Assembly (NCBI GenBank): GCA_019744845.1
Contig: JAIETW010000002.1
Location: 69,759 to 133,758, forward strand
Origin: Patescibacteria group bacterium
GTDB lineage: Bacteria; Patescibacteriota; Minisyncoccia; Phycocordibacterales; Phycocordibacteraceae
Length of the DNA stretch: 64,000 nucleotides
Direction of reading: 5' to 3'
Within the stretch, counting starts at the first letter, position 1. Every line of letters begins with the position of its first letter. The notes beneath the pieces were generated by a model. It had not been told where the DNA came from. It saw only the letters and a list, made by a program, of their open reading frames with translations, and did not search any database. The position numbers were made by a program, and so were the translations under genes. Below are positions 3,586-57,072 of this stretch, in pieces.

Positions 3586-4811
3586 CACCTGAACTTAGAA
3601 ATCTTGGCATAGGAATTCTCTTGCTCGTTGCCATTTTTGGCGGGTCCTACGCGTACGAGACTGCATTGTTTGGTCTTCTTCCACGCTCTCTTGAGCAACA
3701 TGCAACGGCGGTTATTTCTACCTGTGCATCAGAGTCATACCCGCCAAGTTGCTACGATCTGGAAATACCAAAACTCATGGATCAAGGTCTTTCAATGGAA
3801 GAAACTTTTGAGGTGACGAGATTGATACAGAACCAAGTTGATAACTACTTCTATTGTCACGTGCTTGGTCATAACGTGTCGGCAAAAGAGACCGCCAAGG
3901 ACCCACTCGCATGGACGGACGTGGTGGCCCGATGTCCGACTGGCATGTGTAGCAATGGATGCCTTCACGGTGCCGCACAGGAACGCTTTCGCGACGATGC
4001 ACTCACCGATGCGGAGATTCAGGAATTGATTCCTGAATTGAGTCAGATTTGTGAGCCAGGCAGTGGTCGTGATTTTACTGGTCTTGAACAGGCGAGTTGC
4101 TATCACTCACTTGGTCATCTCACCATGTACATAGGTGGAGGAAATATCACCACAGCGGTCGGCGTGTGTGATCAGATCGCAGTGAAAGATACGCATGACT
4201 ATACGCAGACCTGTTACGAGGGTGCATACATGCAGATCTTCCAACCACTTGAGCCGGAAGATTTTGCGCTCGTACAAGATGTCCCCGCAACGACGACCGT
4301 AGATGCCAAGGTGTTTTGTGATGGATTCAGCGGAGAACGTCGTGCCGCTTGTCACCGAGAGTCATGGCCTCTCTACCGAGACTCATTCTCTGAACCAGGA
4401 GGTATTGAAACCTTCTGTACGCTCGTTCCTGACCGAGTCTCACAGCAACGTTGTTACAATGCCATCTTCTATGTCCTGACCGCACAGTATTCATTTGACG
4501 AAGAGAAGGTCACGAATATGTGCGAGAGTGTGCCGGAAAAGCGCATGGGGCAGTGTTTTGGAAATGCAGCCTCACGAATGGTGGAGACCGATTATCGGTT
4601 GACGCCCAACGCCGTGCGTATCTGTGAGCGCGCACAAGAGCACGGAGTAGGTGATAGATGCTACGAGGAACTTGTGTTCTACTCCACGTTTAATTTTCAC
4701 GAAGGTTCAGAGGCGTTCCTCACACTTTGCCGCTCGCTTCCTGAGCCATGGCAGACGCAATGTGTAAACGGAGAGGGGAAGACGTTTCAGCCAAGTAAGA
4801 ACGATTATTAA
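3582..4811 (+). CDS. Exported Cys/His-rich protein, paralog 4 (divergent: CHVLGH ... GCLHGAAQERF ... CYHSLGHLTMY)
   Basis: N-terminal anchor (LGIGILLLVAIFGG). Retains the H-x-x-G-H and C-x-H-x-x-G-H modules of the family; 409 aa. Confidence 0.6.
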   Translation: MTPELRNLGIGILLLVAIFGGSYAYETALFGLLPRSLEQHATAVISTCASESYPPSCYDLEIPKLMDQGLSMEETFEVTRLIQNQVDNYFYCHVLGHNVSAKETAKDPLAWTDVVARCPTGMCSNGCLHGAAQERFRDDALTDAEIQELIPELSQICEPGSGRDFTGLEQASCYHSLGHLTMYIGGGNITTAVGVCDQIAVKDTHDYTQTCYEGAYMQIFQPLEPEDFALVQDVPATTTVDAKVFCDGFSGERRAACHRESWPLYRDSFSEPGGIETFCTLVPDRVSQQRCYNAIFYVLTAQYSFDEEKVTNMCESVPEKRMGQCFGNAASRMVETDYRLTPNAVRICERAQEHGVGDRCYEELVFYSTFNFHEGSEAFLTLCRSLPEPWQTQCVNGEGKTFQPSKNDY

Positions 4812-4814
4812 TAT

Positions 4815-6278
4815 ATGAAAGAGTTTCTTACTCGTCGGAACATACTCATCGCGTTAGTTATCATCGCGGGGGGAGTGGCATACTACCTTTCACAAGTCCC
4901 ACCACCAAATACAATTATCTTGAGGGAAGATGGATGGCATCCGGAGTCACTTGTGGTAGAGCCAGACACGACGGTGATCTTCGTGAATAAGACATCTCAC
5001 TCATTCTGGCCCGCATCAAATAGCCACCCACAGCACGAACGGTATCCTGAGTTTGATGCAGGTCGCCCGATGGCACCCGGAGAGTCGTGGTCGTTCACAT
5101 TTACGCGACCCGGGAAGTGGGTATTCCATGATCACCTTCGTTCTTCGTATGTGGGGAGTATTGCGGTTGGGCAAGAGTACGCAGATTACGATTGTTTGAC
5201 TGATATTGCCGATGCATCTGTCTCAGAGAAGCGTGTGTGTTGGGGTGAGAAGTTGTATGAAGAGCTGCGAGAGAATGGCGCAGCCGCCGCTTTTCGCTTA
5301 TTCGCGAATTTCTATGAGTCAGACCCAGATTTCACGAAAGTAGGGTGCCATGTAATTGCACACCAGCTTGGTGACAATGCGTATGGAGAGTATCTGCGAC
5401 AGGGGAAGAAACTTTCGGTGCTTGAGTTTCCACCAGAGTCAGTGTATTGCGGGTATGGGTATTACCACGGTATTTTTGAACACCTCATTCGCGACAATCC
5501 AGACTTTGAAATGGCAAATGCGTTTTGTCAGGATCTCGTGGCTACGTATGAAGATACGGTGCCACGAATTCGTCTCAATTGTTATCACGCGATAGGGCAC
5601 GGGTTTGTGCCGGAGCCGAGCGATGTGGAGCAATGGGGGGATGTACAAAAGATGACTGAACCCGCGATTGCCGCCTGCGCACGACTCCCTGTGTATGATG
5701 AGCGATCTGAGTGTTTCCAAGGAACATTCAATGTGATTGGAGATTGGATGTGGAACAATCAGTTTGGCTTACGGTTTAGTGAAAGTGATCCGCTTTCAGT
5801 CTGTCGCTTGTATGAAGGGGAGATTTCAGAGGCATGTTATTACGAAGTCGCGATGCGTCTTCTTCCGTACGGTGACGATGATCTTTCACGCATCTACAAT
5901 CTCTATGTGGCGCAGATAGAAAATGATCAGATTGCAGGAATGGTAATTAACTCTGCTGCAGCCGGAGTCATTGGAACGAATATTACTGACGACAATTTCA
6001 TCCCATTTCTCCATACCTGCCGTACGTTGCCCGCACGTGTGCAAGAGGACTGTCTCAAAGGGCTTACCGGAGGGTTCGTGGCACATGGAGAGCCGGAAAA
6101 CGAATATATAAAGGCAATTGATTTCTGTAGTGACGAAGAGCTCACTCCCGACGAGAAAGATATTTGTTATTGGAATATTACTCGTACCTTCAAGGACTCA
6201 TACTCAAAAGAAAAGGTGGAGCAGGTATGTACCGGAGTTGAGGTTGAATACCAGCACTATTGCTCCTACGAATCATGA
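4815..6278 (+). CDS. Exported protein: N-terminal Cys-less cupredoxin-like His-rich domain fused to Cys/His-rich family module (paralog 5; CYHAIGHGF)
   Basis: N-terminal anchor. Residues ~35-115 carry FWPASNSHPQHERYPEFD ... WVFHDHL, the same domain as 7694-8080. The C-terminal part has CHVIAHQLG, YYHGIF and CYHAIGHG. Confidence 0.65.
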   Translation: MKEFLTRRNILIALVIIAGGVAYYLSQVPPPNTIILREDGWHPESLVVEPDTTVIFVNKTSHSFWPASNSHPQHERYPEFDAGRPMAPGESWSFTFTRPGKWVFHDHLRSSYVGSIAVGQEYADYDCLTDIADASVSEKRVCWGEKLYEELRENGAAAAFRLFANFYESDPDFTKVGCHVIAHQLGDNAYGEYLRQGKKLSVLEFPPESVYCGYGYYHGIFEHLIRDNPDFEMANAFCQDLVATYEDTVPRIRLNCYHAIGHGFVPEPSDVEQWGDVQKMTEPAIAACARLPVYDERSECFQGTFNVIGDWMWNNQFGLRFSESDPLSVCRLYEGEISEACYYEVAMRLLPYGDDDLSRIYNLYVAQIENDQIAGMVINSAAAGVIGTNITDDNFIPFLHTCRTLPARVQEDCLKGLTGGFVAHGEPENEYIKAIDFCSDEELTPDEKDICYWNITRTFKDSYSKEKVEQVCTGVEVEYQHYCSYES

Positions 6279-7681
6279 AGCGAGTCGCTATTGTAGCCGG
6301 GCTTCTTGTACTGATCGCGCTGCTCGCATTCATCCCTCCTCAAAACACCATCGTCCTTAAGGACGATGGTTTTCACCCTCGCGTTCTCACCGTATCGGTG
6401 GGGGACACGGTTACGTTCACGAATGCACGTGACAAGTACTTCTGGCCTGCATCAGACTTTCATCCCACACATGCGCTGTACCCTGAGTTTGATGCGAAGG
6501 AGCCGCTTGCGCCTGGTCAGTCCTATGCCATTACCTTTACCGAGCCAGGCACCTATCCTTTTCATGATCATCTTGCTGCGTTCTATTTTGGCATCGTACA
6601 AGTACAAGACGCAGATGGCCGTGTTGTAGATGACTGTATGGAGAAAGGAGGGCAGTTCCAGTGTTGGCAGAACAAGCTGTTTCTTACACTTGCCACTGAA
6701 GGTATAGATCGTACATATGAAGAAGTCGCCACACTTTACGAAGAAGATCCGGCATTCTCAGGTTCATGCCATTACGCAGCGCACAATATAGGACTCGCAA
6801 GCTACCAGTTTTATCAGAAAGATACGGATTTTATTCTCTCCCCACGAGCCACTGCATGTGCCGCCGGTTTCTATCATGGATTCATGGAGGGATACATAGG
6901 TGCTACCGGAGACATAGAGGGCGCTGCGGAAGTTTGCGATACCATCGGCGCACGCATAGGTGAAGAAGCTCCCGATGCGCGCCTCCAGTGCTATCACGGC
7001 ATTGGACACGGTGCGGTAGAAAGTGCGGTTGCGACTTCAGGTTCGTTTGGGAGTCAGCAAAGCTTTGTGGACGCCGCACTTTCTTCGTGTGAGGAGGTGG
7101 CAGACGGAGAGCAAGAACTCTACCGCTGCGTATCTGGGGTATTCAATGGAATCGCAAATTTCTACATCATCGGTGCCTACGGTCTTTCGGTGAAGGATGA
7201 CCCTCTGTTGCTCTGCGCGAATCAGCCAGAAGTATACAAAGAAGCGTGCTACGGAAACATGAACTCAGTAGTGTATTACGAAGCCAGGGGAGAGTTTACC
7301 CCTGCAGTGGAAGAAGTATTTTCTATTCCTGACGTCACCGAACGTCCGAAAGCACTTGAGTACCTTCTTCTTCTGTTCGCGCTTAATCACATTCAGGATG
7401 AGTCGCTCGCACCGCTCATACAAGAGTGTCAGGCGCTGCCGGATTCCTATGTCGCCTCATGTCTTGGTGGGTTGGTACGCGGGCTTCTTGAACACGGTAT
7501 TCCAGGGAAAGAGTATGAAAAAGCCTTGAATCTGTGCCGTGAATCAACTCTCACCGCAGCAGAGCGTGATGCGTGTTATGCCATCGTACTTACGGGCGCG
7601 GATGGATGGTACGGGGCTGAGAAAGTGAAGGAGATTTGTGCCTCCGTACCAGTGCAGGAACAGGCGTATTGCACGCCGTGA
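6275..7681 (+). CDS. Exported protein: N-terminal cupredoxin-like His-rich domain fused to Cys/His-rich family module (paralog 6; CYHGIGHGAVE)
   Basis: Start set at the internal ATG (MKRVAIV...) that overlaps the upstream stop as ATGA; the track ORF begins at 6260. Carries FWPASDFHPTHALYPEFD ... YPFHDHL, then CHYAAHNIG, FYHGFMEGY and CYHGIGHG. Confidence 0.65.
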   Translation: MKRVAIVAGLLVLIALLAFIPPQNTIVLKDDGFHPRVLTVSVGDTVTFTNARDKYFWPASDFHPTHALYPEFDAKEPLAPGQSYAITFTEPGTYPFHDHLAAFYFGIVQVQDADGRVVDDCMEKGGQFQCWQNKLFLTLATEGIDRTYEEVATLYEEDPAFSGSCHYAAHNIGLASYQFYQKDTDFILSPRATACAAGFYHGFMEGYIGATGDIEGAAEVCDTIGARIGEEAPDARLQCYHGIGHGAVESAVATSGSFGSQQSFVDAALSSCEEVADGEQELYRCVSGVFNGIANFYIIGAYGLSVKDDPLLLCANQPEVYKEACYGNMNSVVYYEARGEFTPAVEEVFSIPDVTERPKALEYLLLLFALNHIQDESLAPLIQECQALPDSYVASCLGGLVRGLLEHGIPGKEYEKALNLCRESTLTAAERDACYAIVLTGADGWYGAEKVKEICASVPVQEQAYCTP

Positions 7682-7693
7682 TAGAGTAGTTCC

Positions 7694-8080
7694 ATGAATA
7701 CAAAAGTGGCAATTGTGGTCGGTGTGCTCATACTCGCGGCTGCGGGATGGTACGTGTCACAGGAAAAACCTGTCACACCACAGGTACAGGTAAAAGTGCC
7801 AGAAGGGGCGATAGTAGTAGAGCTGACAAAAGAGGGCTTTTCTCCGTCAGAGCTTACTATCGCGAAAGGAGAGAGCGTGACATTTCGTACCACCGGAACG
7901 GATCTGTACTGGCCTGCATCAAATCTCCACCCGTCTCACGGAATCTATCCAGAGTTTGATCCTTTGAAGCCACTTCAACCGACCGAAGTGTGGAGTTTTA
8001 CCTTTGATCAGGTAGGGGAGTGGAAGTACCACGATCATCTTGCGCCCTATTTTACCGGCGTCATAACAGTGACTGAATAA
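7694..8080 (+). CDS. Membrane-anchored standalone cupredoxin-like His-rich domain protein (128 aa)
   Basis: N-terminal TM (VAIVVGVLILAAAGWYV). YWPASNLHPSHGIYPEFD ... WKYHDHLAPYFTGVITV aligns with the N-terminal domains of the two preceding genes. The beta-sandwich cupredoxin ligand positions are occupied by His/Asp rather than Cys/Met. Confidence 0.6.
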   Translation: MNTKVAIVVGVLILAAAGWYVSQEKPVTPQVQVKVPEGAIVVELTKEGFSPSELTIAKGESVTFRTTGTDLYWPASNLHPSHGIYPEFDPLKPLQPTEVWSFTFDQVGEWKYHDHLAPYFTGVITVTE

Positions 8081-13571: not shown

Positions 13572-14495
13572 ATGGCGACCTTGAAAGAGCATCTTATAGA
13601 ACTTGGTATAGACGCAGGACTCACGTCTATTCTTCTTGATCTTGCGAAGGTAGAGGTAGAGATCTACGACTCTATTCGTATGCGCGACATGGTGAAGAGG
13701 GGAGACACGAATGCGACGGGCGACACACAGTCCGCGCTTGATCTTACGTCTGAAGAACTCATTGCAAAAACCCTTGATGCAAATAGCCATGTCTGTTCGC
13801 ACCTCTCTGAAGAGTGTGTGGATCTGAAGACCTGTTCGGCGACTGGTACCTACTTTGTCTCGTATGATCCGTATGACGGCGGGTCGGTCGGAGATGCCGA
13901 TATTACCGTCGGCTCTATCTTTGGTGTCTGGAGCGAGCCACCAATGCTTGGAGACGCCGCAGGGAAGAACATTATCTGTGGTGCATACACGCTCTGGGGA
14001 CCGAACCTCGCGTTTGCGTTTGCGACGCGTGAGTATGGTGCGTTTTGGTATGAGTATGACGGAAGCGAGTATCAGCTCATTGGTCCTCTTAACTTTGACC
14101 AGGAAGGACTCCACAAAGGAATCTTCTGTCCTGGAGATAGTCCTGCGATGCTTACGAGTGCTGCGTATGAAGGATTGTTTAAATACGCAATGGAGCAAAA
14201 GTTCCGTCTTCGCTACACCGGCTGCTGCATGACCGACACACACCATGTCCTTCATAAGAAGGGAATGTTCTGGTATCCACCAGGTAAGAAGGGAGGGCTT
14301 CGTCTTATGTACGAAGCCGTTCCACTTGGATTTATGGTGATTGCCGCAGGGGGCACCGCGATAGATCACACGGGCGCGAATCTCTTAGAGGTACCGTTGA
14401 ACGAATGGCACCAGCGCTCCTCACTTATGTTTGTGTCTCCTGGATACGAAAAGGAAGCGACCGAGCGCTTCCTTGAAGTAGGGAAAGGAAATTAA
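13572..14495 (+). CDS. fbp: Fructose-1,6-bisphosphatase class 1
   Basis: SYDPYDGGSVGDADITVGSIFGVW matches the FBPase class I metal-binding/active-site block (DPLDGSSN ... GTIF), ~307 aa. Confidence 0.85.
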   Translation: MATLKEHLIELGIDAGLTSILLDLAKVEVEIYDSIRMRDMVKRGDTNATGDTQSALDLTSEELIAKTLDANSHVCSHLSEECVDLKTCSATGTYFVSYDPYDGGSVGDADITVGSIFGVWSEPPMLGDAAGKNIICGAYTLWGPNLAFAFATREYGAFWYEYDGSEYQLIGPLNFDQEGLHKGIFCPGDSPAMLTSAAYEGLFKYAMEQKFRLRYTGCCMTDTHHVLHKKGMFWYPPGKKGGLRLMYEAVPLGFMVIAAGGTAIDHTGANLLEVPLNEWHQRSSLMFVSPGYEKEATERFLEVGKGN

Positions 14496-15481
14496 ATTTC
14501 CTTAATTGCGTACTCCGTCGGTGCTTTGGCGAGATATTCTTCCAATGCTTTTCTCGGAAGGAGTCCGCGCTGTGCACCGATGTCCTGCACGACGGACATA
14601 GAGTTCACTGGGCCCCAGAGAAGTGCTTCCTGAAGTGTCTTACCGAGGGTGAGTGCTGCAGCCACAGTGGAAGCGAATGCGTCTCCTGCACCGGTGCGTT
14701 CTTTGGGAGCGCGAACATCTGGATACATAGGAACAAAGAATGTCTTGGTGCCATCATACGCGTACGCACCATTACGTCCGTCGGTGATAAGTGCAATTTT
14801 TGGACCAAGCGCGCGCATCTTCTCTAGAAGTTCTTTGATGTCTTGAGGGCCGGAGAGACCGAGAATGCGCTCCGCTTCTTCTTTATTGACGACGACAAAG
14901 TCTGCGCGCTTGTAGATACGCGCAAGCTTTTCAATACCAAGTTTCATCTGGAAGGTGCCAGGTTGAAACGCAAAGAATACTTCAGGATGCGCTTCTGCGT
15001 ATGCAGCAACCTGGTCGTGATATTCCTCTGTGCCTTCTCCAAGAGAAGAGAGATAAATGGTCTTTGGCTTGGGAAGCTTGGGAAGCGCGTAGGGGTAGTG
15101 CTCGTGCTTCACGAGGATGGTGCGCTCACTTTCAAAGGAGAGCACATAGTGATGATTCGTCGGGATACCCGCGTGCAGCTTCACGAACTTCGTATCAATC
15201 TTTTCTTTTTTGAATACGTTCAAGATCTCTTTCCCGTAGGCATCCTTTCCGGTGTTTGTGACAAAGGCCGTCTTAAGGCCAAGGCGAGCCGCAGACACCG
15301 CGGCATTTGCGGCATTACCCACGCCGGCGACCATGACTGCGGATTTAAAGGGGATCTTATCGCCCCATCGCATAGAAATCTCACACTCTTCATCATCAAT
15401 CTTGCAGTGTACGCGTGCGTCCTGCAGCTCAATAAACTCATCAACAACCGTATCACCAATGGAAATAAATTCTGTAGTCAT
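14492..15481 (-). CDS. PfkB-family carbohydrate kinase (ribokinase-like)
   Basis: C-terminal TGAGDAFASTVAAAL PfkB signature 2 and a GVGNAANAAV-type N-terminal region, ~329 aa. It is the only minus-strand gene in the sugar-phosphate cluster. Confidence 0.8.
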   Translation of the reverse strand: MTTEFISIGDTVVDEFIELQDARVHCKIDDEECEISMRWGDKIPFKSAVMVAGVGNAANAAVSAARLGLKTAFVTNTGKDAYGKEILNVFKKEKIDTKFVKLHAGIPTNHHYVLSFESERTILVKHEHYPYALPKLPKPKTIYLSSLGEGTEEYHDQVAAYAEAHPEVFFAFQPGTFQMKLGIEKLARIYKRADFVVVNKEEAERILGLSGPQDIKELLEKMRALGPKIALITDGRNGAYAYDGTKTFFVPMYPDVRAPKERTGAGDAFASTVAAALTLGKTLQEALLWGPVNSMSVVQDIGAQRGLLPRKALEEYLAKAPTEYAIKEI

Positions 15482-15513
15482 AGGGAAAAGTGTAGCATGC
15501 TATCCTTTTAGTA

Positions 15514-16494
15514 ATGATTGATCTTGAAGCCTGCGCACGGTCTCTCGTCGCCGAAGGGAAGGGACTTCTTGCGCTTGATGAAAGCGATGAGGCACTTGAT
15601 GCGCGATTTTCCGCGGTGGGGATCACACCATCTGCACCACTTAGAAAGAAATACCATGATCTGCTTCTTCAGACGCCTGGTATAGAAGAGTGTATTTCAG
15701 GTGTCCTGCTCTCTAAAGGAGGTGTAACAACCTATGCAAAGACTCTTCACGACCGGAACATCGTTCCTGGAATTCGTGCAGATGAAGGAGCAGAGCCAAT
15801 GGGCGAGAGTGAGCACGAGTGTCTCACCAAAGGGCTTATTAGCCTTCCAGAGCTACTTACCGAGTCTCGGAAAATGCATCACACAGGCTTTGCGAAGTGG
15901 CGTGCACTTATTCGTATTAACGGGGATCATCTGCCGACCGCGAATGCAGTCGTGGAGAACGCAAAACGACTTGCGATGTATGCACGCCAGGTACAGGAAC
16001 ACGGAATGGTGCCTATCGTAGAGATGGAAGTAAGCAGCGAAGGATCGCATAGTCGTCTTCGTGCAAAAGCAGTGACTGAGGAAGCGCTGTCTGCCCTCGT
16101 GCACGCGCTTGAAGATCAGGCGATTGATCTTTCCGGCGTGCTTGTAGAGACGTCTATGGTGCGTTCGGGAAAAGAGAGTGGACGAATAGACTCACCAGAA
16201 GAAGTGGCTGCAGATACCCTTGAGGTACTTCAAAAGGTCGTTCCTCGTCATGTACTTGGGATCGTCTTTCTTTCCGGAGGACAGACACCAGACCAGGCCA
16301 CTGACAATCTGCGTGCGATCGTACAGGCCGGAAAGAAGGGAAATGCGCCCTGGCCGCTCACGTTTTGCTATGCTCGTGCCCTTCAGGAAGAGGCACTCGC
16401 CATATGGGGAGGAAAGGAGGAGCATGCGGGTGCCGCCGAGGAAGCCTTCCTCACACGCCTACGGAAAGTAGGGGCCGCTGCCCGTGGGGAGTAG
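15514..16494 (+). CDS. fba: Fructose-bisphosphate aldolase class I
   Basis: GKGLLALDESDEALDARFSAVGI ... LLLQTPGIEECISGVLL parallels the class I FBA N-terminal block (GKGILAADES ... RQLL ... GVIL); 326 aa. Confidence 0.8.
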   Translation: MIDLEACARSLVAEGKGLLALDESDEALDARFSAVGITPSAPLRKKYHDLLLQTPGIEECISGVLLSKGGVTTYAKTLHDRNIVPGIRADEGAEPMGESEHECLTKGLISLPELLTESRKMHHTGFAKWRALIRINGDHLPTANAVVENAKRLAMYARQVQEHGMVPIVEMEVSSEGSHSRLRAKAVTEEALSALVHALEDQAIDLSGVLVETSMVRSGKESGRIDSPEEVAADTLEVLQKVVPRHVLGIVFLSGGQTPDQATDNLRAIVQAGKKGNAPWPLTFCYARALQEEALAIWGGKEEHAGAAEEAFLTRLRKVGAAARGE

Positions 16495-22510: not shown

Positions 22511-22555
22511 ATAGCTTGGCCCTCAGAGAGGGAACAGGCACTACAATAGATACAT

Positions 22556-31406: not shown

Positions 31407-31437
31407 ATGCCGTAATTTGTGTTGAAGTATAGCAAAT

Positions 31438-42632: not shown

Positions 42633-42908
42633 ATGAGTGCCCTTGTTCTTTATTGGATTCTTCTCCTTGTCTGGGTTGCGGTCGTTGCCTACTTCATTGT
42701 CTTTGACCTCTTTCCGCTTCTCTTTGGGCATGGCCATGGAAAGAAGGAGCATGGAGGAGGGCATGGTCACGGACATGATGACCATGCGCCAGAGGCATCA
42801 AGTGGCTACTCAGTCTATAGCGGCTTCAAATCCTTTGCTGATAAGGATGGGAAACTTACCCCAAACGATATTGTGAAAGGACTTTCTCGGGAAGAGAAGG
42901 ACATATGA
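42633..42908 (+). CDS. Small membrane protein with His/Gly-rich metal-binding-like tract
   Basis: Two TM helices, then GHGHGKKEHGGGHGHGHDDH. Begins 25 nt after the terminator. Confidence 0.5.
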   Translation: MSALVLYWILLLVWVAVVAYFIVFDLFPLLFGHGHGKKEHGGGHGHGHDDHAPEASSGYSVYSGFKSFADKDGKLTPNDIVKGLSREEKDI

Positions 42909-43603
42909 GTTCTAGGGGAACACCAGCTGAAGTGCCGGCACCGGCACGTTCAAAAGGAGAGAGGCTCAGAGAGGCAGAACGGGATCCGCGCCTTGAGCGT
43001 CGGCGATTTGTACTTTCTCGCGTGCCAGAACTTCGTGAGAGAATCTTTCATCTCCAGAAAGTGTTTTCTGATCTCCAGAAAGAACATCCCGAATTGGTTG
43101 GTCTTTCACTCTATGGATCGCATACGAAAGGATATGCAGATTTTCTTTCTGATATTGATGGCGTCGTGTTTGTTGATTTTGACGAAGCGCAGAAGCGAGG
43201 GACAGATAAGCTTGAGCTTCGGCGCCTGGTACAGGAAACAGTACGGAAAGAATTAGGGCTCACTTCTGAACATGTTTCCATAGATGCTGTTAGTATTTCT
43301 CTTCAAAACAATAGTGTTACTACGCTCCGGACTCCGCGCCTCTTCCATCTCGCGATTGGTGACAAGCTGCGTCCATACCGTGACGCAGCTATCCGGTCCT
43401 ACGAAGAGAAAGGCGAAGAAGGAGAGAGGGAATGGGCACGTCTCGTATTTGAACTTGTGCTCCATGAGAATCACACTTTCTCTGACGAGTTTGTAGAGAA
43501 GCGTCTACACCTCTATCCGTGGTCGCTCAAGAAGGCGCGAGCGTATTATGCACCGGAGCGAGGAAGCGACTACACAGAATCTTCCGTAGAGGATTCCGCA
43601 TAA
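42905..43603 (+). CDS. Minimal nucleotidyltransferase (Pol-beta superfamily) domain protein, tandem paralog 1
   Basis: LSLYGSHTKGYADFLSDIDGVVFVD matches the G-S-x(9-13)-D-x-D NTase motif, followed by a helical C-terminal domain. Clear paralog of the next gene. Confidence 0.65.
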   Translation: MSSRGTPAEVPAPARSKGERLREAERDPRLERRRFVLSRVPELRERIFHLQKVFSDLQKEHPELVGLSLYGSHTKGYADFLSDIDGVVFVDFDEAQKRGTDKLELRRLVQETVRKELGLTSEHVSIDAVSISLQNNSVTTLRTPRLFHLAIGDKLRPYRDAAIRSYEEKGEEGEREWARLVFELVLHENHTFSDEFVEKRLHLYPWSLKKARAYYAPERGSDYTESSVEDSA

Positions 43604-43606
43604 AAT

Positions 43607-44248
43607 ATGGCTGACGAGGGGATGCGTAAGTTTGAGCGAATAGACGCGATAGAGAACGATACACGTCTGGTGCATCACCGATTCCTTCTTTCTGAAGACC
43701 CTGCACTCCGGGAGAAGCTCCGTATACTGCAAGATTCGTTCAAGCAACTTCAATCCAAATTTCCTGAGATCATCAGTCTACAAGTATTTGGATCACACAC
43801 GAAAGGGTATGCCTCCCCTGATTCGGATTTTGACTTAGGGCTGGCGCTAGATTCAAATAAACTTGAGGCAGCAAAACGTACTAGCGTTCAAGTGTCTAGC
43901 GAAGTGCGGAATTATTTGCATACAAAGCTTAGCGTGAACAAAAGAGATATCGCTCTTGAGTACTACGAACTCGGTGGACCAGAAAGTTACGCGCGGTATG
44001 AACCCTTTCTATTATCCCTCGGTAACGGGATGCGCCCGTATCGTGAGGCGATTATCCGGAAGCTTGAACAGCAGCCTGACGGTGAACGGGTATGGATGCA
44101 CATCGTCGGACAGCTATGGGAGCGAGAAAATCTCTATTTCAGTGCTGCGCTCTTACGTGAGCGAAAGAAGCTATACCCACAGACGCTCGCTGAGGCGCGT
44201 GCGTACTTTCTTCCCGAACCGAAGCAAGAGACTACGAGCGATTCCTAA
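43607..44248 (+). CDS. Minimal nucleotidyltransferase domain protein, tandem paralog 2
   Basis: LQVFGSHTKGYASPDSDFDLGLALD. Shares RPYRxAxIR ... LYP ... ARAY blocks with paralog 1. Confidence 0.65.
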   Translation: MADEGMRKFERIDAIENDTRLVHHRFLLSEDPALREKLRILQDSFKQLQSKFPEIISLQVFGSHTKGYASPDSDFDLGLALDSNKLEAAKRTSVQVSSEVRNYLHTKLSVNKRDIALEYYELGGPESYARYEPFLLSLGNGMRPYREAIIRKLEQQPDGERVWMHIVGQLWERENLYFSAALLRERKKLYPQTLAEARAYFLPEPKQETTSDS

Positions 44249-50147: not shown

Positions 50148-50189
50148 GCCCCGTTGCGGGAAACGGCTATATACGGTAAGGTAGCGCCT

Positions 50190-50534
50190 ATGTCTGTACG
50201 AATGCGCCACACGAGCTCCCACACGAAGAATCGTCGGAGTCATCATGCCCTTAAGAACAAGAAAATAGTGACGGATAAGGAGACCGGAAATCTCCGTCTT
50301 CCGCACCGTCTTGATGAAAAGACCGGTATGTACCGCGGTAAGCTTATCGTCCCTCCAAAGGTAAAGAAGGCAAAGAAGGACTATGCTAAGGCGGATAAGA
50401 TCGGCCCTGCAGAAGGAAAGGTGCACCTAGAAAAGGTAGATGAGCCAAAGATAGAGAAGAAGGAAAAGGGTCTTCTCGGTCGCATGACCAAAGGAAAGGC
50501 AAAGGCACGTTCAGGAATGGGAGGAGGAGTATAA
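50190..50534 (+). CDS. rpmF: 50S ribosomal protein L32 with long Lys-rich C-terminal extension
   Basis: MRHTSSHTKNRRSHHAL ... LPHR parallels the L32 N-terminus (KKSRSRRDMRRSHDAL ... PH). Start moved to an internal ATG. Confidence 0.7.
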   Translation: MSVRMRHTSSHTKNRRSHHALKNKKIVTDKETGNLRLPHRLDEKTGMYRGKLIVPPKVKKAKKDYAKADKIGPAEGKVHLEKVDEPKIEKKEKGLLGRMTKGKAKARSGMGGGV

Positions 50535-50614: not shown

Positions 50615-51514
50615 ATGGCCAATCGGCATCTCGCGCGTTCTCTTGTCCTTCAGTCCCTCTTTGAGTGGGATACGGCAGGTGTGCCTGTAGCGGAGGTGAA
50701 GAACATCCTTGCGCGTAACACCCGTGAGTTTGGAGGGGATGATACTGAAGGGCCATTTATGGAATCTCTCCTTGAAGGCGTGCTCGCAAAGCACGACGAT
50801 CTAGATTTGATTATTCAGAAGGCGGCACCCGACTGGCCGTTGAATCGCATTGCACCGATTGACCGAAACATTCTTCGGTTGGGACTCTATGAGCTTTTGT
50901 TTGCGGACCGTGACCAGGTACCACCGAAGGTGGCAATCAACGAAGCAATTGAGCTTGCAAAGATCTTTGGCGGGGAATCGTCAGGACGTTTTATTAACGG
51001 CGTGCTCGGTGCCGTGTACAAGGAGATGGGTGAGCCAGGAAAGGAAGATGGCGCTAAGAAGAAGGAGCGGATAGATCCGCGCACGCTTCCGGTGGAAGAA
51101 CTTGCAGGTGCGATCGTGTACGCGCCACACGAGGGTCAGTGCTACGTGGCACTGGTGCATGACGTCTTTGGACGCTGGACTCTGTCTAAGGGGCACATCA
51201 ATGAAGAAGAGACTCCGCAGCAGGGTGTGATTCGTGTGATTCAGGAGGAGCTTGGACTCACCGGTACGGTAGAAGAAGTGGTGGGAGAGAACGAATACAT
51301 CGCCTCACACCCTGAGAAAGGGAAGGTCCGTAAGCACGTGTACTTCTTTTTGGTAAAGACCGAGTTCTCAAAACTCTCTTTGAAGCAGAGTGGAGGCCTT
51401 GATGATGCCCGCTGGTTCCGGCTTGCGGATATTCGGGCCCTTAACTTCTACGACGACATGCTCCCAATCGTCACCTCGGCCGTCCAAAAGCTCCTTGATA
51501 AGGCTTTGAAGTAG
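50615..51514 (+). CDS. nusB: NusB (transcription antitermination) fused to C-terminal NUDIX hydrolase domain
   Basis: The first ~140 aa are NusB-like (LVLQSLFEWD ... LAKIFGGESSGRFINGVLG). The C-terminus has the Nudix box GHINEEETPQQGVIRVIQEELGL (G-x5-E-x7-REUxEExGU). Confidence 0.8.
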   Translation: MANRHLARSLVLQSLFEWDTAGVPVAEVKNILARNTREFGGDDTEGPFMESLLEGVLAKHDDLDLIIQKAAPDWPLNRIAPIDRNILRLGLYELLFADRDQVPPKVAINEAIELAKIFGGESSGRFINGVLGAVYKEMGEPGKEDGAKKKERIDPRTLPVEELAGAIVYAPHEGQCYVALVHDVFGRWTLSKGHINEEETPQQGVIRVIQEELGLTGTVEEVVGENEYIASHPEKGKVRKHVYFFLVKTEFSKLSLKQSGGLDDARWFRLADIRALNFYDDMLPIVTSAVQKLLDKALK

Positions 51515-51535: not shown

Positions 51536-52219
51536 ATGGAGTTTACTGACGCCGCAGAGAAGCTAGGGCTTCCGTTTCGTGATCTCGCGCTTCTAGAGGA
51601 GGCGCTCACGCACCGTTCCTATCTGAATGAGAATAGAAGCTCCAAGGCACACAATGAGCGCCTTGAGTTTCTTGGGGATGCAGTGCTTGAGCTTGCGACG
51701 ACACGCTTTCTTTTTGATAAGTTTCCAAAGAAACCAGAAGGGGAATTGACCGCGTATCGTGCCGCACTCGTGAATACGTATTCCATTGCTGCCGTGGCGC
51801 AGGAGCTTGGGGTAAACGACATGCTCCTTCTTTCAAAGGGAGAGAAACGGGATACGGGACGTGCGCGTCAGATCATTCTTGCGAACGCGTTTGAAGCAAT
51901 TGTGGGTGCGGTCTATCTTGACCAGGGGTATGACGCGGCAGAAGTATTTCTTGCGAAGCATCTCTATCCAAAACTAGAGAGTGTGCTTGAAGAGCGAAGC
52001 TATCAGGATGCAAAGAGTCGTTTCCAAGAACTCGCCCAGGAACATGATGGGGTGACGCCGAAGTACAAGACACTAGAGGAGACGGGACCTGACCACGACC
52101 GTCAGTTCACGGTCGGTGTATTTATAGGAGATGAGGAGATTGCGCAGGGAGAAGGGAAGAGCAAGCAGGAGGCAGAGCAGGATGCAGCCAAGAAGGGGTT
52201 AGAGAAGAAGAAGTGGTAG
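51536..52219 (+). CDS. rnc: Ribonuclease III
   Basis: HRSY ... ERLEFLGDAVLEL signature and a C-terminal dsRBD. Confidence 0.92.
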   Translation: MEFTDAAEKLGLPFRDLALLEEALTHRSYLNENRSSKAHNERLEFLGDAVLELATTRFLFDKFPKKPEGELTAYRAALVNTYSIAAVAQELGVNDMLLLSKGEKRDTGRARQIILANAFEAIVGAVYLDQGYDAAEVFLAKHLYPKLESVLEERSYQDAKSRFQELAQEHDGVTPKYKTLEETGPDHDRQFTVGVFIGDEEIAQGEGKSKQEAEQDAAKKGLEKKKW

Positions 52220-52243
52220 GTTCGAGTCCTGGACAGCCAGCAC
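52219..52243 (+). repeat. Degenerate copy of intergenic repeat (GGTTC ... GGACAGCCAGCACGTG) at rnc end, 16 nt upstream of next ATG
   Basis: Shares the GACAGCCAGCAC core and a downstream -10-like GATAGCAT with the three full copies. Confidence 0.35.
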
Positions 52244-52259
52244 GTGATAGCATTACTTC

Positions 52260-52754
52260 ATGAGTGAGCCGACGTTCCCAACACCCAAGCAGCCCGTGCC
52301 TACCGAAGTACCAGAAGAGGCGACCTCACGCGTTTTGCAAGACGTCTTCACTAGTTACTTATTTGATCTAAACGACGCAGGTGGGTCTAGTTCAACCGCT
52401 ACAAGCGCGATTTTCTATCGCTCAAAACTTCCTAGAGTGCTGGCAAGACAGATGGGAGCGATGTCAGGGTTACGCGCCGCCCTCCATGATCCCAGAGTAT
52501 CCAGGGCGAAAGCAGACTCTCTTCCCCCCGCCTACTTCGACAATCTTGATCAGATTATATTGTTCTTTACGCAAGCAGCCCATGACGAAGGTCTGCAAGA
52601 CAAGCTTTGGGCAAAAATGTGCGCAATTTGTGAACTTCCTCCAGAAACAAAGGAAATCCAGTTTAGTCAGGTTTTTGACACACTTAGAGCCAAGGGCTAC
52701 GGGCAATTAAAGATAGATAAGCGTGATGGCAGCAATTCATCTGAGGAGACATAG
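52260..52754 (+). CDS. Hypothetical protein (164 aa)
   Basis: ORF only; no family motif recognised. Confidence 0.5.
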   Translation: MSEPTFPTPKQPVPTEVPEEATSRVLQDVFTSYLFDLNDAGGSSSTATSAIFYRSKLPRVLARQMGAMSGLRAALHDPRVSRAKADSLPPAYFDNLDQIILFFTQAAHDEGLQDKLWAKMCAICELPPETKEIQFSQVFDTLRAKGYGQLKIDKRDGSNSSEET

Positions 52755-52784
52755 GGTTCCAACATCGTCCAAGACAGCCAGCAC
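52755..52784 (+). repeat. Intergenic ~32-bp repeat copy A (GGTTCCAACATCGTCCAAGACAGCCAGCAC) + TGATATACT, 15 nt upstream of ATG 52800
   Basis: Near-identical to the copies at 53361 and 53713, and followed by an extended -10-like box. Confidence 0.7.
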
Positions 52785-52799
52785 TGATATACTCGTTTT

Positions 52800-53357
52800 A
52801 TGAAAGTAATACTTTTTGACTTCTTTGGAGTGTTCTCCACCCCTGTATATAAAAAAGTAATAGATACATACATCCCTGAGTCAGAACGAGAGACATGGAT
52901 GAAGAAGCTTGATGTGCTTGATACTGGTGAACTTTCGGAAGAAGATTTGCGCAAGCAACTTGCCGAAAGAGCCGGAGTGGAAGAAGGTGAAATACGCGCA
53001 GCCGTTGATGGCGCACCAGTGCGAAATACTGAGCTCTTTAACTATGTTGAAGAGAATCTAAAAGGGAAGTATGTAGTCGGCTTGCTGACCAATATTCCAC
53101 GTTCTCTATTTGAAAGAATAGCCGCAGATAAGGCGTCGCTTTTTGATCCGCTCCTTATTTCATCTGACTTAAAACTTATTAAACCAAGTAGAGAAATATT
53201 TGAAGAAGCAATTCGTAGATGTGGTGTCCTGCCAGAAGAAATACTGTTCATAGACGACGGAGAAAAGAATATTGCTGCTGCCAAAGCGGTTGGACTAAAT
53301 GGCTTTGTCTATACGGACTTTCCCTCGTTTTTAGAAAACATAGCTCCTTATTTGTAG
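52800..53357 (+). CDS. HAD-superfamily hydrolase (subfamily IA-like)
   Basis: Motif I (VILFDFFGV), a cap domain, and motif IV (FIDDGEKNIAAAKAVG). Confidence 0.8.
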   Translation: MKVILFDFFGVFSTPVYKKVIDTYIPESERETWMKKLDVLDTGELSEEDLRKQLAERAGVEEGEIRAAVDGAPVRNTELFNYVEENLKGKYVVGLLTNIPRSLFERIAADKASLFDPLLISSDLKLIKPSREIFEEAIRRCGVLPEEILFIDDGEKNIAAAKAVGLNGFVYTDFPSFLENIAPYL

Positions 53358-53360
53358 GAA

Positions 53361-53391
53361 GGTGGTTCCAACATCGTCCAAGACAGCCAGC
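53361..53391 (+). repeat. Intergenic repeat copy B (GGTGGTTCCAACATCGTCCAAGACAGCCAGC) + AGCTATACT, upstream of ATG 53409
   Basis: 31/31 identity with copy C apart from one indel; -10-like TATACT 9 nt before the ATG. Confidence 0.7.
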
Positions 53392-53408
53392 CAAGCTATA
53401 CTTTTCCC

Positions 53409-53711
53409 ATGCTTGATAGTTTTCTTCTAACTAGACTCAAGAAAACAAATTACCCGCTCTATGTACTATGGCGGGCGATTCTTCATGTCGCTAGCTCCCT
53501 GGTTCTTCTCTTCGTTTCGCACCTTGTGGCGTTAGAGTACGGGTATAATGCGCCCGCGTACGTATTTGCCGCATTGCTTATTTTCATAACCTACCTAGAG
53601 TTTTATCTGCATCCAAAGCTCTATCACCAAAAGCTCTCAAAAGGCATCATAGATTGGCTCTCCTGGATCCTACCGTTCATACTGTATTTTCTCTTTCTTG
53701 GAATCCTGTAA
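53409..53711 (+). CDS. Small multi-pass membrane protein (100 aa)
   Basis: Three hydrophobic helices. Confidence 0.45.
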   Translation: MLDSFLLTRLKKTNYPLYVLWRAILHVASSLVLLFVSHLVALEYGYNAPAYVFAALLIFITYLEFYLHPKLYHQKLSKGIIDWLSWILPFILYFLFLGIL

Positions 53712-53712
53712 A

Positions 53713-53746
53713 GGTGGTTCCAACATCGTCCAGAGACAGCCAGCAC
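53713..53746 (+). repeat. Intergenic repeat copy C (GGTGGTTCCAACATCGTCCAGAGACAGCCAGCAC) lying between convergent gene ends
   Basis: Same element. No plus-strand gene of 60 aa or more follows it; the region encodes the C-terminus of the minus-strand channel gene. Confidence 0.7.
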
Positions 53747-53751
53747 GTATT

Positions 53752-54462
53752 TCAATTCTCTCGCTTTGTGCCAATAAGCACTTTGCGAAGGAGGGGGCTC
53801 ATGAGTCCAACCAGTAAACCAAGCAACAAAAGCCCCACAAAACGTCCCAATATCATAACGGCTTTTCCCGCTTCGGTTGCAGGCTCGGAATACGGCACGT
53901 CTCCAAGAATGATCAGAAGCGACCAGAACATGCCAGACGGTATGTCGTGTGCACTTGATCCAGCACCCTCGAATATATAGAGCAAGGTGCCTAGCAACAA
54001 AAGCGCTATGAGCATAGCGACAAAATAAATTTGAATATTCACGATATAGAGCGAACGTTCTCCGTGATGCTGTTCTATTCTGGCAACCTTTGCGAGCCGT
54101 ATCATCCTTAGGAGGCGAAGAATACGGAGTGCGCGTGTCGTTTTAAGAAACGTAAAGTTCCCAAGCGCAAGGAGTGAAGGAAGAATAGCCAACAAGTCTA
54201 TAATGCCGAAGAAGCTGAAGATGTATCGGAACTTGGCACGTGCGATATAGACACGCGCACCATATTCCGTAAGAAAACATACGACACTTATCCATTCAAT
54301 TGCTTTGAAGATTGCATGATACTCACTCAGTGACGGCACTGTCTCAAGAACAAGGGCAAGAACGGAGGCGATTGTGAGAAACGCCAGAAAGTCGTTAACG
54401 ATGATGAAAAGTCGTGATTGTGGATTTTCAAGTGCGTTGCGAAGTGCGTTCCCAGAGTTCAT
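53752..54462 (-). CDS. Voltage-gated ion channel family protein (single 6-TM-like unit, S4-type voltage sensor)
   Basis: S4-like RALRILRLLRMIRLAKVAR with Arg at every third position, preceded by ~3 TM helices and followed by a pore-like segment and TM (SLLIILGDVPYSE). Confidence 0.7.
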   Translation of the reverse strand: MNSGNALRNALENPQSRLFIIVNDFLAFLTIASVLALVLETVPSLSEYHAIFKAIEWISVVCFLTEYGARVYIARAKFRYIFSFFGIIDLLAILPSLLALGNFTFLKTTRALRILRLLRMIRLAKVARIEQHHGERSLYIVNIQIYFVAMLIALLLLGTLLYIFEGAGSSAHDIPSGMFWSLLIILGDVPYSEPATEAGKAVMILGRFVGLLLLGLLVGLMSPLLRKVLIGTKREN

Positions 54463-54533
54463 ATGGTAGATAAACTATAACACTTGCCGCTATGTGGAGA
54501 GACAGTCTGTAAGTTGGTTGTATACTGTTCTCT

Positions 54534-54882: not shown

Positions 54883-57072
54883 ATGTTGAAGCGACTAGAA
54901 ATCGCCGGATTCAAATCATTCGCGAAGAAAACTTCGCTTGATTTCTCGTCGTCGGTAACCGCAATTGTGGGCCCAAACGGTTCTGGTAAATCAAACGTCG
55001 CTGAAGCCTTTCGTTTTGCACTTGGTGAGCAGTCTATGAAAAGCATGCGTGGAAAGCGCAGTGAGGATCTTATCTGGAGCGGGTCTAACACCTCTCCTCG
55101 TTCTAACCGCGCGTCTGTTGCGGTGGTGTTTGATAACCGAAAGAAGATTTTCCCAAAGATGGAGTTTGATGAGGTGTCTATTGAGCGCGCCGTATTCCGC
55201 GATGGTGCGAGCGAATATTCAGTGAACGGATCTAAAGTACGCCTTCGTGATGTGCAGGAACTCCTTGCAAGCGCCAACATTGGTGACACGGGGCACCACA
55301 TCATTTCGCAAGGAGAAGCAGATCGTATTCTTCTCTCTGCACCTCGCGAACGTCGTGCCATGCTTGAGGATGCACTTGGTCTTCGTGTCTTTGAATTTAA
55401 GAAACAAGAGGCAGAGAAGAAGCTTGAGAAGACGGAAGAGAATGTAAAGCAAGTGGAGGCACTTCGTCGGGAGATTCTTCCGCATATTAAATTCCTTTCA
55501 AAGCAGGTGGAGAAGCTGGAGCGTGCAGAAGAACTCATTAAAGAGCTCACCGCTGCCGCGCGTGAATACTTTGCAATAGAAGAGCTCTACATTCGCTCAG
55601 AGAAAGCGACGTCTACCACGCGTCTTAAAGATGCGACAGAGCGTCTTGCAACTGTGTCTGCAGAACTCGCACCACTCCAAGACCGTGCCGCTATGGATTC
55701 TGAGGGAATGAAGCGTGCAGAAGCCGTACGGAATGCTGAGCGTGAGCTTGATCGTGCACTTGGGGAACACGCCACACTGTCTCGTGAGATTGGACGCATA
55801 GAGGGTGCACTTGAAGGAGCACGTAAGCGCGCAGACGCTGCTGCGCAAGAGCCATACGTGAAGGTATCTCGTGAAGACCTGTCTGCATTGAAGAGTGAAG
55901 TAGAGGCACAGACACGCATTGGAGATGGGAGCCCTGAAGCGATTCGTGCTGCCTTCATGGCCATTAAGTCTGCCCTCACAGCGTTCTTTGACCGCTTTGC
56001 AGGAGGAAGTGAGCGAATGGCGGAAGAAGAGCGTGAAGTGTATGCGCTAGAAGAAGAGAGGAAGAATCTCGTGGCGCGTGAAGAAGAACTTGCTGCTGCG
56101 TCTGAGAAAGCTCGCCACGCGCTCGTTCGTGCACGTGAAGAGTCTGCTGCGCACGAGGAGACCGGACGTGAGAATCAGTATCGTGTGCTTGATATGGCAG
56201 AAGCTAAAGCACGGGAGGAAGCAACGGTCGCTCGAGAAGAGGGTCGCCAGCGTGAACTCGCTATGCTTGCAGAAGAGCTTGAGCGTGACCGTGCGGAAGT
56301 CATGGCGCTTGCAGGCACTGCGGCACTTTCATACGCGCCCCTGTCTTCACTTCCAGAGGAAGAACGTCGTGTGCAGGAAGATCGTAAGCGCAGTATGGAG
56401 CGTCTTAAGATTCGCGTAGAAGAAGCGGGAGGAACCGGAGAGGACGTGCGTGCTGAATACAATGACGCGACTGAACGTGAGCAGTTCCTTACCCGTGAGC
56501 TTGAGGATCTTGCGAAGTCTGCCGAAGGACTCCGTGCTCTTATCAGTGATCTTGATGAGGAGCTTGGAAAGACTTTTGCGGAAGGGCTTGCCAAGGTGAA
56601 CGCATCGTTCACTGAATTCTTTGCAATTATGTTCGGAGGAGGAAGTGCACGTTTGATACTTGAAGAACCAGAGGAACCAGATGAGGAGGATGAAGAAGGA
56701 GTAGTACGCGAAGGGAAGCCAGGCATTGAAATTGCAGTGAATCTTCCAAAGAAGCGGGTGCAGGCACTCATGCAGCTTTCTGGAGGAGAGCGTGCCTTGA
56801 CCAGCATCGCGCTTATCTTTGCGATGAGTCAGGTGAATCCGCCCCCATTCCTTATTCTTGATGAAACGGATGCCGCACTTGATGAGGCGAACTCTCGCCG
56901 CTATGGCGACATGATTGAAGGACTGGCGAAGAAATCACAGCTCGTCGTCATTACCCACAATCGTGAGACCATGAGCCGTGCAGGTATACTCTACGGAGTC
57001 ACCATGGGAAATGATGGAATTAGTAAGTTGTTATCCGTTAAATTTGAAGAAGCGATGATGGTCGCTAAATAG
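54883..57072 (+). CDS. SMC-family chromosome-associated ATPase, unusually short and without an obvious hinge
   Basis: N-terminal AIVGPNGSGKSNVAEAFRFALGEQS (Walker A, SMC N-terminus), a long Ala/Glu/Arg coiled coil, a C-terminal signature LSGGERALTSIALIFAM, and Walker B ILDETDAALD. Confidence 0.8.
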   Translation: MLKRLEIAGFKSFAKKTSLDFSSSVTAIVGPNGSGKSNVAEAFRFALGEQSMKSMRGKRSEDLIWSGSNTSPRSNRASVAVVFDNRKKIFPKMEFDEVSIERAVFRDGASEYSVNGSKVRLRDVQELLASANIGDTGHHIISQGEADRILLSAPRERRAMLEDALGLRVFEFKKQEAEKKLEKTEENVKQVEALRREILPHIKFLSKQVEKLERAEELIKELTAAAREYFAIEELYIRSEKATSTTRLKDATERLATVSAELAPLQDRAAMDSEGMKRAEAVRNAERELDRALGEHATLSREIGRIEGALEGARKRADAAAQEPYVKVSREDLSALKSEVEAQTRIGDGSPEAIRAAFMAIKSALTAFFDRFAGGSERMAEEEREVYALEEERKNLVAREEELAAASEKARHALVRAREESAAHEETGRENQYRVLDMAEAKAREEATVAREEGRQRELAMLAEELERDRAEVMALAGTAALSYAPLSSLPEEERRVQEDRKRSMERLKIRVEEAGGTGEDVRAEYNDATEREQFLTRELEDLAKSAEGLRALISDLDEELGKTFAEGLAKVNASFTEFFAIMFGGGSARLILEEPEEPDEEDEEGVVREGKPGIEIAVNLPKKRVQALMQLSGGERALTSIALIFAMSQVNPPPFLILDETDAALDEANSRRYGDMIEGLAKKSQLVVITHNRETMSRAGILYGVTMGNDGISKLLSVKFEEAMMVAK

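Follow-up and report, generated by a model that had tools for sequence, protein, structure and literature searches.

We analysed a 64,000-nucleotide (nt) stretch of a Patescibacteria genome (positions 69,759 to 133,758 of contig JAIETW010000002.1, assembly GCA_019744845.1; hereafter the window) and focused on a locus downstream of rnc at which a repeated element of about 28 nt lies between consecutive genes. The gene order at this locus is NusB-NUDIX, rnc, a 164-amino-acid (aa) open reading frame (ORF), a HAD hydrolase, a 100-aa hydrophobic protein, an Ion_trans gene on the − strand, a 105-aa ORF and a short SMC. We refer to the 28-nt form of the element as the type I site, to a shorter variant as the type II site and to the units between sites as cassettes. 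The syntenic locus L009, from the metagenome-assembled genome (MAG) H41-bin080, serves as the main comparison. The features of the window locus are as follows.

52219–52241, + strand: type II site (copy D), GGTTCGAGTCCTGGACAGCCAGC, an uninterrupted mimic of the tRNA-Gln 3′ end made up of the T-loop, the T-stem 3′ strand, the acceptor 3′ strand ACAGCCA, G73 and C; kept in L009 at 4331–4353

52242–52754, + strand: cassette 1, with an extended −10 TGaTAGCAT at 52245–52253 (hexamer TAGCAT at 52248–52253) and a leaderless-type ATG at 52260

52755–52782, + strand: type I site, copy A, 28 nt, directly 3′ of the cassette 1 stop codon

52783–53363, + strand: cassette 2, with a −10 TATACT at 52788–52793 after TGa and a HAD-family hydrolase ORF at 52800–53357

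53364–53391, + strand: type I site, copy B, 28 nt

53392–53715, + strand: cassette 3, with a −10 TATACT at 53397–53402 and an ORF at 53409–53711 for the 100-aa hydrophobic protein

53716–53744, + strand: type I site, copy C, 29 nt, beyond which the array has no intact site

53745–54499, − strand: distal unit with a reversed gene of the Ion_trans family (53752–54462) and its own −10 TATAGT on the − strand

54500–54526, + strand: decayed half-site AGACAGTCTG at 54500–54509, then the −10 TATACT (54521–54526) of the conserved 105-aa gene

Copies A and B both carry the 28-nt sequence GGTTCCAACATCGTCCAAGACAGCCAGC, while copy C reaches 29 nt through one added G at a variable spot, positions 17–19. 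Dinucleotide-preserving shuffles gave 0.00 expected chance matches to the repeat, exact matches to the 10-mer GACAGCCAGC in the window are confined to the four repeat copies, and neither strict nor loose searches of the 64 kb found a further copy beyond these four. The searches and shuffles bear out the count made in a first-pass annotation of this DNA, which had listed an element repeated three times plus one degenerate copy. The latter does lie at the 3′ end of rnc, where its first base is the last base of the stop codon, but it is not degenerate: copy D belongs to a distinct, conserved tRNA-like class (type II) and is not a decay product. Each copy begins 0–6 nt 3′ of the stop codon of the preceding gene. 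Copy C, as had been noted before, has no + strand gene behind it, and the convergent Ion_trans gene ends 7 nt downstream. The decayed half-copy lies upstream of the 105-aa gene, and its counterpart in L009 is a decayed full site at 6987–7013.

The type I site can be written as the pattern CCAACATCGTCCN{2,3}GAC[AT]GCCAGC. The element was found in two other Patescibacteria MAGs in a scan of GTDB species genomes and in 54 stretches from groundwater, mats and lakes in a metagenome scan, so that the search of related genomes for which the first-pass annotation had called did recover it in other Patescibacteria. With fuzzy matching we collected about 100 distinct copies with unrelated flanks on roughly 55 Patescibacteria contigs. 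The conserved block is sharply 28 nt long, GGTTCCAACATCGTCCCAGACAGCCAGC, and its edges are A-rich. Dispersal in hundreds of copies, as a simple miniature inverted-repeat transposable element (MITE), had been named at the outset as the finding that would overturn the earlier interpretation; instead, exact copies number 1–3 per 660–740 kb contig. A MITE was also rejected on the grounds that the element has no terminal inverted repeats and that the window copies lie at one locus.

The sites form directional arrays. Neighbouring sites are co-oriented in 63/63 pairs and are spaced by a median of 623 bp (range 182–4226 bp). Among 60 intervals, 42 hold one gene, nine hold two, one holds three and eight hold none, and of the 63 genes between sites, 51 share the orientation of the sites and 12 run opposite to it. 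Upstream co-oriented genes have their stop codon a median of 6 nt before the site, and 30 of 65 downstream co-oriented genes start 16–23 nt past it. The cargo is unrelated and includes NUDIX, HAD, histidine phosphatase (His_Phos), diacylglycerol kinase (DAGK), TauE and cupin proteins and domains of unknown function (DUFs). Recurrent cassette families are few and weak: HAD proteins 31–55% identical, a 136-aa family, and a 224/242-aa family, 39% identical, shared between a tRNA-Gln locus (L039) and an array between MurA and MreB (L043). Homologues of the HAD cassette of the window stand directly after tRNA-Gln in L029 (31% identity) and L024 (55% identity). The genes that flank the arrays are housekeeping genes, namely rnc, NusB, SMC, Dus, DnaX, MurA and MreB. 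In our reading, of the 13 arrays with a type II site, 12 have it in first place, adjoining a host gene, and in tRNA-linked arrays the tRNA itself occupies the starting place of the type II site. A CRISPR array, with repeats of 28–37 nt and non-coding spacers of 30–40 nt, was dismissed given the spacing of 182–4226 bp and the genes in the intervals.

Some units between type I sites, 249–368 bp long, lack an ORF of at least 60 aa (L017 226–857; L023 2900–3295 and L046 923–1319), and behind several sites come AATAAA, a GC hairpin and a T-run. Such stretches might represent empty cassettes, small RNAs or, for convergent genes, terminators.

In an alignment, both type I and type II sites run colinear with the 3′ ends of tRNA-Gln, with the invariant columns GGTTC.A, TCC, G and CAGC. 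All three have in common the T-loop GGTTCGAnTCC, the T-stem 3′ strand, a 7-nt acceptor 3′ strand ending in A72, then G73 and C; the U1-A72 pair and G73 are traits of tRNA-Gln. The type II class reads GGTTCGARTCC, 3 nt, 7 nt ending in CA, and GC, and stands directly after stop codons at many loci. Type I sites differ from the tRNA-Gln tail by a G>C change and a 5-nt T-loop insertion, ACATC. ARAGORN identified 15 tRNA genes in 58 loci, ten of them tRNA-Gln, and all ten tRNA-Gln genes lie upstream of type I sites and are co-oriented with them. It found no tRNA gene at the sites of the window, where the entry site is a tRNA-Gln-3′-like pseudo-site after rnc. At the tRNA-Gln-linked loci the inserted DNA lies at the 3′ portion of one particular tRNA gene and is bounded by direct repeats of the tRNA 3′ segment, type I being the 5-nt-insertion derivative. 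Judged by this alignment, the repeat element is derived from the tRNA-Gln 3′ end. A likeness of CGTC..AGACAG to a conserved segment of 23S rRNA covers 12/18 positions and was judged to be chance.

One locus shows an additional detail. In L012, which has tRNA-Gln at 1001–1072 and its first type I site at 1661–1688, the right half of that site is AAGTCTGCCAGC and resembles the tail of that genome's own tRNA-Gln, AAGTCTGGCAGC, more than the consensus CAGACAGCCAGC. This site may be a hybrid that records a crossover. The position of a crossover could not be fixed from hybrid sites, L012 being contradictory.

Comparison of related loci revealed that cassettes are replaced between conserved flanks. 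L009 and the window have NusB-NUDIX, rnc (99% amino-acid identity), the 105-aa gene and SMC in common. Their nucleotide homology runs at 88% up to 52242, just past the first site, and resumes at 82% at 54519, at the −10 box of the 105-aa gene. Between 52243 and 54518 everything differs and the sites alone match: the window has the 164-aa, HAD, 100-aa and reversed Ion_trans genes, whereas L009 has four different genes, each with a site in front. Neither cassette 1 nor the distal Ion_trans unit occurs in L009. Conserved flanks with differing cassettes were also seen in L055/L060 (an RNase R-like gene to a 639-aa gene), L008/L043 (MurA to MreB) and L027/L053. In L030 and L033, which are 92–95% identical, the distal cassettes are common and the proximal ones differ, and L030 has in addition a unit of 877 bp, consisting of a reversed 275-aa gene with one site, that is bounded exactly by sites. 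Within the window's own population, every Logan contig shows one and the same array. One of them, the 1176-bp L003 (SRR15085118), stops 2 nt beyond the rnc stop codon, where the type II site starts; this break in the assembly at the repeat might hide variation at the strain level.

The sites also decay with a clear polarity. Across 31 arrays, the distal site of a neighbouring pair was the more degenerate one in 37 cases, the less degenerate one in none and equal in 11 (sign test, p = 1.5e-11), mismatches to the consensus rising outward from the tRNA or type II end. In the window they number 1, 1 and 2 before the half-site at 54500–54509, and in L009 they number 0, 2, 3 and 5. Because mismatches rise outward, the youngest sites are the proximal ones. 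In integrons, insertion is attI-proximal, which likewise leads one to expect younger units near the entry site. Accretion at a tRNA entry site, as in tRNA islands and tycheposons, expects such a polarity as well (10.1101/2020.12.28.424599; PMC4383910).

These observations bear on whether the 28-mer could belong to a common promoter, as its upstream portion, or be bound by a single regulator. The first-pass annotation had proposed a shared promoter/operator cassette and co-regulation of the units by one DNA-binding protein, and it had placed −10-like boxes behind three copies. The boxes are real: the hexamers behind copies D, A and B each end 6 nt before the ATG (52260, 52800 and 53409), although the ATG stands 17–18 nt from the end of the conserved block and not at the distance first given. 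In keeping with a promoter, co-oriented genes start 16–23 nt past the site in 30 of 65 cases with the −10 between, all 28 positions are strongly conserved, which suggests that a protein recognises them, and the GAGACA of the decayed half-site lies 16 nt before the −10 of the 105-aa gene. However, the same −10 and leaderless layout occurs genome-wide without the element. Thirty-two genes of the window are preceded by a gap of 30 nt or more. In 21 of them TAnnnT ends 5–12 nt before the start codon (background 6.7%), while a Shine-Dalgarno-like motif was found in two of the 32. None of the other −10-bearing promoters of the window carries the 28-mer; rnc (GGTATACT-N9-ATG) and smc (GGTATAAT-N9-ATG) are examples. 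Since this layout is found throughout the genome without the repeat, the genes behind the repeats simply have their own −10.

The boxes, moreover, lie outside the conserved 28 nt and follow the end of the block at a variable distance of 4–9 nt (about 30 other instances), and a sigma-70 consensus scan found no −35/−10 pair at copies D, A and B and no −35 at 16–18 nt. A shared promoter also sits poorly with the 12 of 63 genes that are reversed, the 18 sites that face a convergent gene end, copy C with no gene behind it, the terminator hairpin directly after some sites and the unrelated functions of the cargo. Site orientation tracks the array and not the genes, and old sites decay distally while the genes behind them persist, which is hard to square with a role as promoter, operator or terminator needed by every gene. 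We therefore regard a common promoter or regulator site as very improbable, and neither the promoter/operator cassette nor the regulon was upheld. The further suggestion of mobile, promoter-carrying remnants holds in part, as the units do look like mobile one-gene modules with their own −10, but they are not MITE-like.

Across the window, the layout suggests that mRNAs are as a rule leaderless or nearly so in this Patescibacteria genome, which appears from these motifs to use −10-only or extended −10 promoters generally. Examples of the (G)G-TAnnnT layout are at 10130, 17266, 18670, 22556, 34066, 39360, 44232 (− strand), 51536 and 54883. Divergent gene pairs lie 31–45 nt apart (15482–15513, 22511–22555 and 31407–31437), and their facing −10 boxes overlap as a palindrome, for example GTGTAGCATGCTATCC between the genes 14492–15481 (− strand) and 15514–16494 (+ strand).

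The position of the site, always close behind a stop codon, would also suit an element of the mRNA 3′ untranslated region (UTR), such as a terminator without a hairpin, a Rho entry site or a tRNA-like signal for processing or stability, placed between leaderless genes. The site is C-rich, unstructured and tRNA-like in sequence, and AATAAA with an intrinsic terminator follows it in some loci. The predicted secondary structure of the 28-nt site, though, was not beyond that of shuffled controls on either strand (z 0 to +1.85), and Rfam gave no match at the gathering threshold or at E = 10; a structured RNA, a terminator or an attC-like hairpin was rejected on the same two results. The 5′ partner strands that a T-arm or acceptor helix would need fall in unrelated coding sequence and are not conserved. 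A 3′ UTR element would leave the array-wise co-orientation, the polarity of decay and the replacement of cassettes unexplained, and we find it scarcely credible.

Our data establish that the element is related to tRNA-Gln, how the arrays are built, that site decay is polar, and that cassettes are replaced, inserted or deleted with breakpoints at the sites. On this sequence evidence, we think it probable that the element is an att-type recombination site from the tRNA-Gln 3′ end that bounds small mobile gene cassettes. The type II site at 52219–52241 is accordingly annotated as the putative proximal, attB/attI-like boundary of the array.

A different history could have produced some of the same features. 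Conventional integrase-bearing elements or phages may have integrated again and again at tRNA-Gln and then decayed to partial-tRNA repeats, or RecA may have exchanged DNA between 28-bp repeats after DNA uptake, in either case with no dedicated site-specific system acting at the level of the cassette. The arrays do adjoin tRNA-Gln with repeats from its 3′ end, as in tRNA islands (PMC4383910; 10.1101/2020.12.28.424599), no recombinase was found in or beside them, and the polarity of decay also fits accretion at a tRNA. Against this, the motif and Pfam searches found no integrase remnant in about 60 units on roughly 55 contigs, and the units are consistently one-gene, bounded by complete sites and tightly trimmed, with the stop codon 0–6 nt before the site and the ATG 16–23 nt after it. 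In addition, 28 bp is at the lower limit for RecA-dependent exchange. The repeat is a specific 5-nt-insertion derivative, identical across distant genomes, and not a displaced genuine tRNA end, and arrays also occur at non-tRNA pseudo-sites such as that after rnc. We consider such a history unlikely.

Several results weigh against an att-type site bounding mobile cassettes. Core sites of tyrosine and serine recombinases usually have dyad symmetry, and in the consensus only 4/11 arm positions match by hand count; with no fold either, the palindromic substructure for which the first-pass annotation had advised a check is absent. A Xer/dif-like site was rejected for the same want of dyad symmetry. 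No tyrosine or serine recombinase motif turned up in crude regular-expression scans of the 397 kb of loci and the window, Pfam identified no recombinase among 112 cassette-adjacent proteins, the larger inter-site genes and the tRNA-Gln flanks, and the annotated parts of the window contain none. A search for a vector in the IMG/VR, INPHARED phage and PLSDB plasmid collections did not recover the site; the two pattern scans of IMG/VR returned a single chance match inside a high-GC ORF. An excised circle or an empty site was not seen directly, the Logan contigs of the population showing one array. The tRNA-Gln-like right half of the first L012 site is not predicted by simple insertion models, and the tight distance of 16–23 nt from site to ATG allows some promoter contribution by the site.

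For an att-type site we propose the following mechanism. The chromosomal entry site would be a genuine tRNA-Gln or a tRNA-Gln-3′-like type II pseudo-site, and a cassette would consist of one gene with its own −10 for a leaderless mRNA, closed by a 28-nt type I site. If the chromosomal site is written B-O and the type I site P-O, integration of a circular cassette would yield B-O-[cassette]-P-O-B′, and repeated insertion would give a type II site and then a series of type I sites, matching the observed order. New cassettes would enter at the entry-site end and push older ones outward, where their sites decay, and two co-oriented sites could recombine so that cassettes are lost or gained internally. 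The recombinase, site-specific and encoded elsewhere, would act in trans. Strand exchange would probably occur near the shared ...CCAGC/AA right-hand end, because type II sites have for the most part retained an acceptor-like sequence of their own and the tRNA must stay functional. Each cassette would need its own −10 since the organism presumably translates leaderless mRNAs; such genes need a transcript that starts at the ATG, so a common upstream promoter could not serve them.

Cassettes 2 and 3 differ from the window in composition, and the foreign composition of the HAD cassette counts in favour of mobile cassettes. Cassette 2 has a GC content of 0.41 and a GC content at third codon positions (GC3) of 0.34, and cassette 3 a GC content of 0.43, against 0.512 for the whole window. 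The 164-aa ORF of cassette 1 matches no Pfam family. Upstream of the array, one ORF at 50615–51514 (+ strand) joins a NusB domain (residues 7–136) to a NUDIX hydrolase domain (residues 165–280), and this fusion is also kept in L009. Bacterial SMC proteins usually have about 1,100–1,200 aa; the SMC_N-family protein at 54883–57072 (+ strand) has only 729. Ribosomal protein L32, usually about 60 aa, is encoded here by an ORF of 110–126 aa at 50154–50534 (+ strand) with a long lysine-rich C-terminal extension. Two tandem paralogues at 42905–43603 and 43607–44248 (+ strand) have weak NTP_transf_2/Polbeta matches and are homologous to the first cassette gene of L009 (4372–5055), so a cassette gene has non-cassette relatives elsewhere. 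At 4815–8080 (L065 603–2408), two neighbouring ORFs whose only matches are weak ones to Cupredoxin_1 adjoin a pentose-phosphate/glycolysis block of GAPDH, RpiB, two Rpe paralogues, a split transketolase, FBPase, PfkB and an aldolase.

To our knowledge, the Candidate Phyla Radiation (Patescibacteria) is characterised by tiny genomes with few recognisable mobile elements, and we know of no integrons described in it. The arrays would be a concrete route of gene gain in these bacteria, acting as hot spots between housekeeping genes at which one-gene modules (NUDIX, HAD and other phosphatases, transporters and proteins of unknown function) are swapped among genomes of groundwater, lakes and microbial mats. 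They further hint at a way in which a cassette system could accommodate leaderless translation. As an exact tag, the 28-mer would allow cassettes to be harvested from any metagenome and the enzyme to be traced by phylogenetic profiling, and a recombinase that recognises an asymmetric site might be of interest as a tool. In the literature we searched, neither the 16-mer of the site nor a link between Patescibacteria and leaderless promoters, tRNA-Gln, integrons or cassettes was found. That search also yielded no description of such arrays.

Among known arrangements, a leaderless promoter or regulon resembles the arrays in the −10 that stands 6–8 nt before the ATG behind most copies, but the box is outside the repeat. 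The pdif (Xer) modules of Acinetobacter plasmids are small gene modules with 28-bp sites and a recombinase encoded elsewhere; in dif-type sites a 6-bp centre lies between two 11-bp inverted arms, and pdif modules are flanked by oppositely oriented sites. Our modules are likewise small and bounded by 28-bp sites, but these lack a dyad and are all direct.

The closest parallels are tRNA islands and integrons. Like the arrays, tRNA islands and the tycheposons of Prochlorococcus are seeded 3′ of a specific tRNA gene, have partial-tRNA direct repeats between insertions, place newer units next to the tRNA and older, decayed ones distally, and occur in streamlined genomes with few classical mobile elements (10.1101/2020.12.28.424599; PMC4383910). 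They differ in that our units are single genes in which no integrase or replication module was found, in that the repeat is a fixed 5-nt-insertion derivative and not a plain displaced fragment, and in that pseudo-sites, for example after rnc, are used too. Seven tRNA targets are listed for tycheposons, and tRNA-Gln is not among them (10.1101/2020.12.28.424599).

With integrons and clusters of attC sites lacking integron-integrases (CALIN), the arrays have in common mostly single-ORF units of about 0.2–1.3 kb (median 623 bp here) that are mostly co-oriented with a reversed minority, a recombination-site-like repeat that abuts the stop codon, a distinct attI-like first site (here type II or tRNA-Gln), unrelated cargo, and cassette content that varies between close relatives. 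The attC site is an imperfect inverted repeat of 57–141 bp that folds as a hairpin, whereas the site described here has 28 nt, is unstructured and non-palindromic and comes from a tRNA 3′ end. A crude motif scan and Pfam searches of the flanks found no intI, attI or Pc beside the arrays. Integron cassettes are promoterless, in contrast to the cassettes here, each of which has its own −10, and there are several arrays per genome. More tentatively, it is quite possible that the arrays represent an active gene-capture system of Patescibacteria (Paceibacteria-type), equivalent to integrons in function and mechanistically different from them, in which single-gene cassettes, each with a leaderless promoter of its own, would be inserted beside tRNA-Gln or its pseudo-sites at an asymmetric 28-bp site by a recombinase acting in trans, perhaps one of an unusual type.

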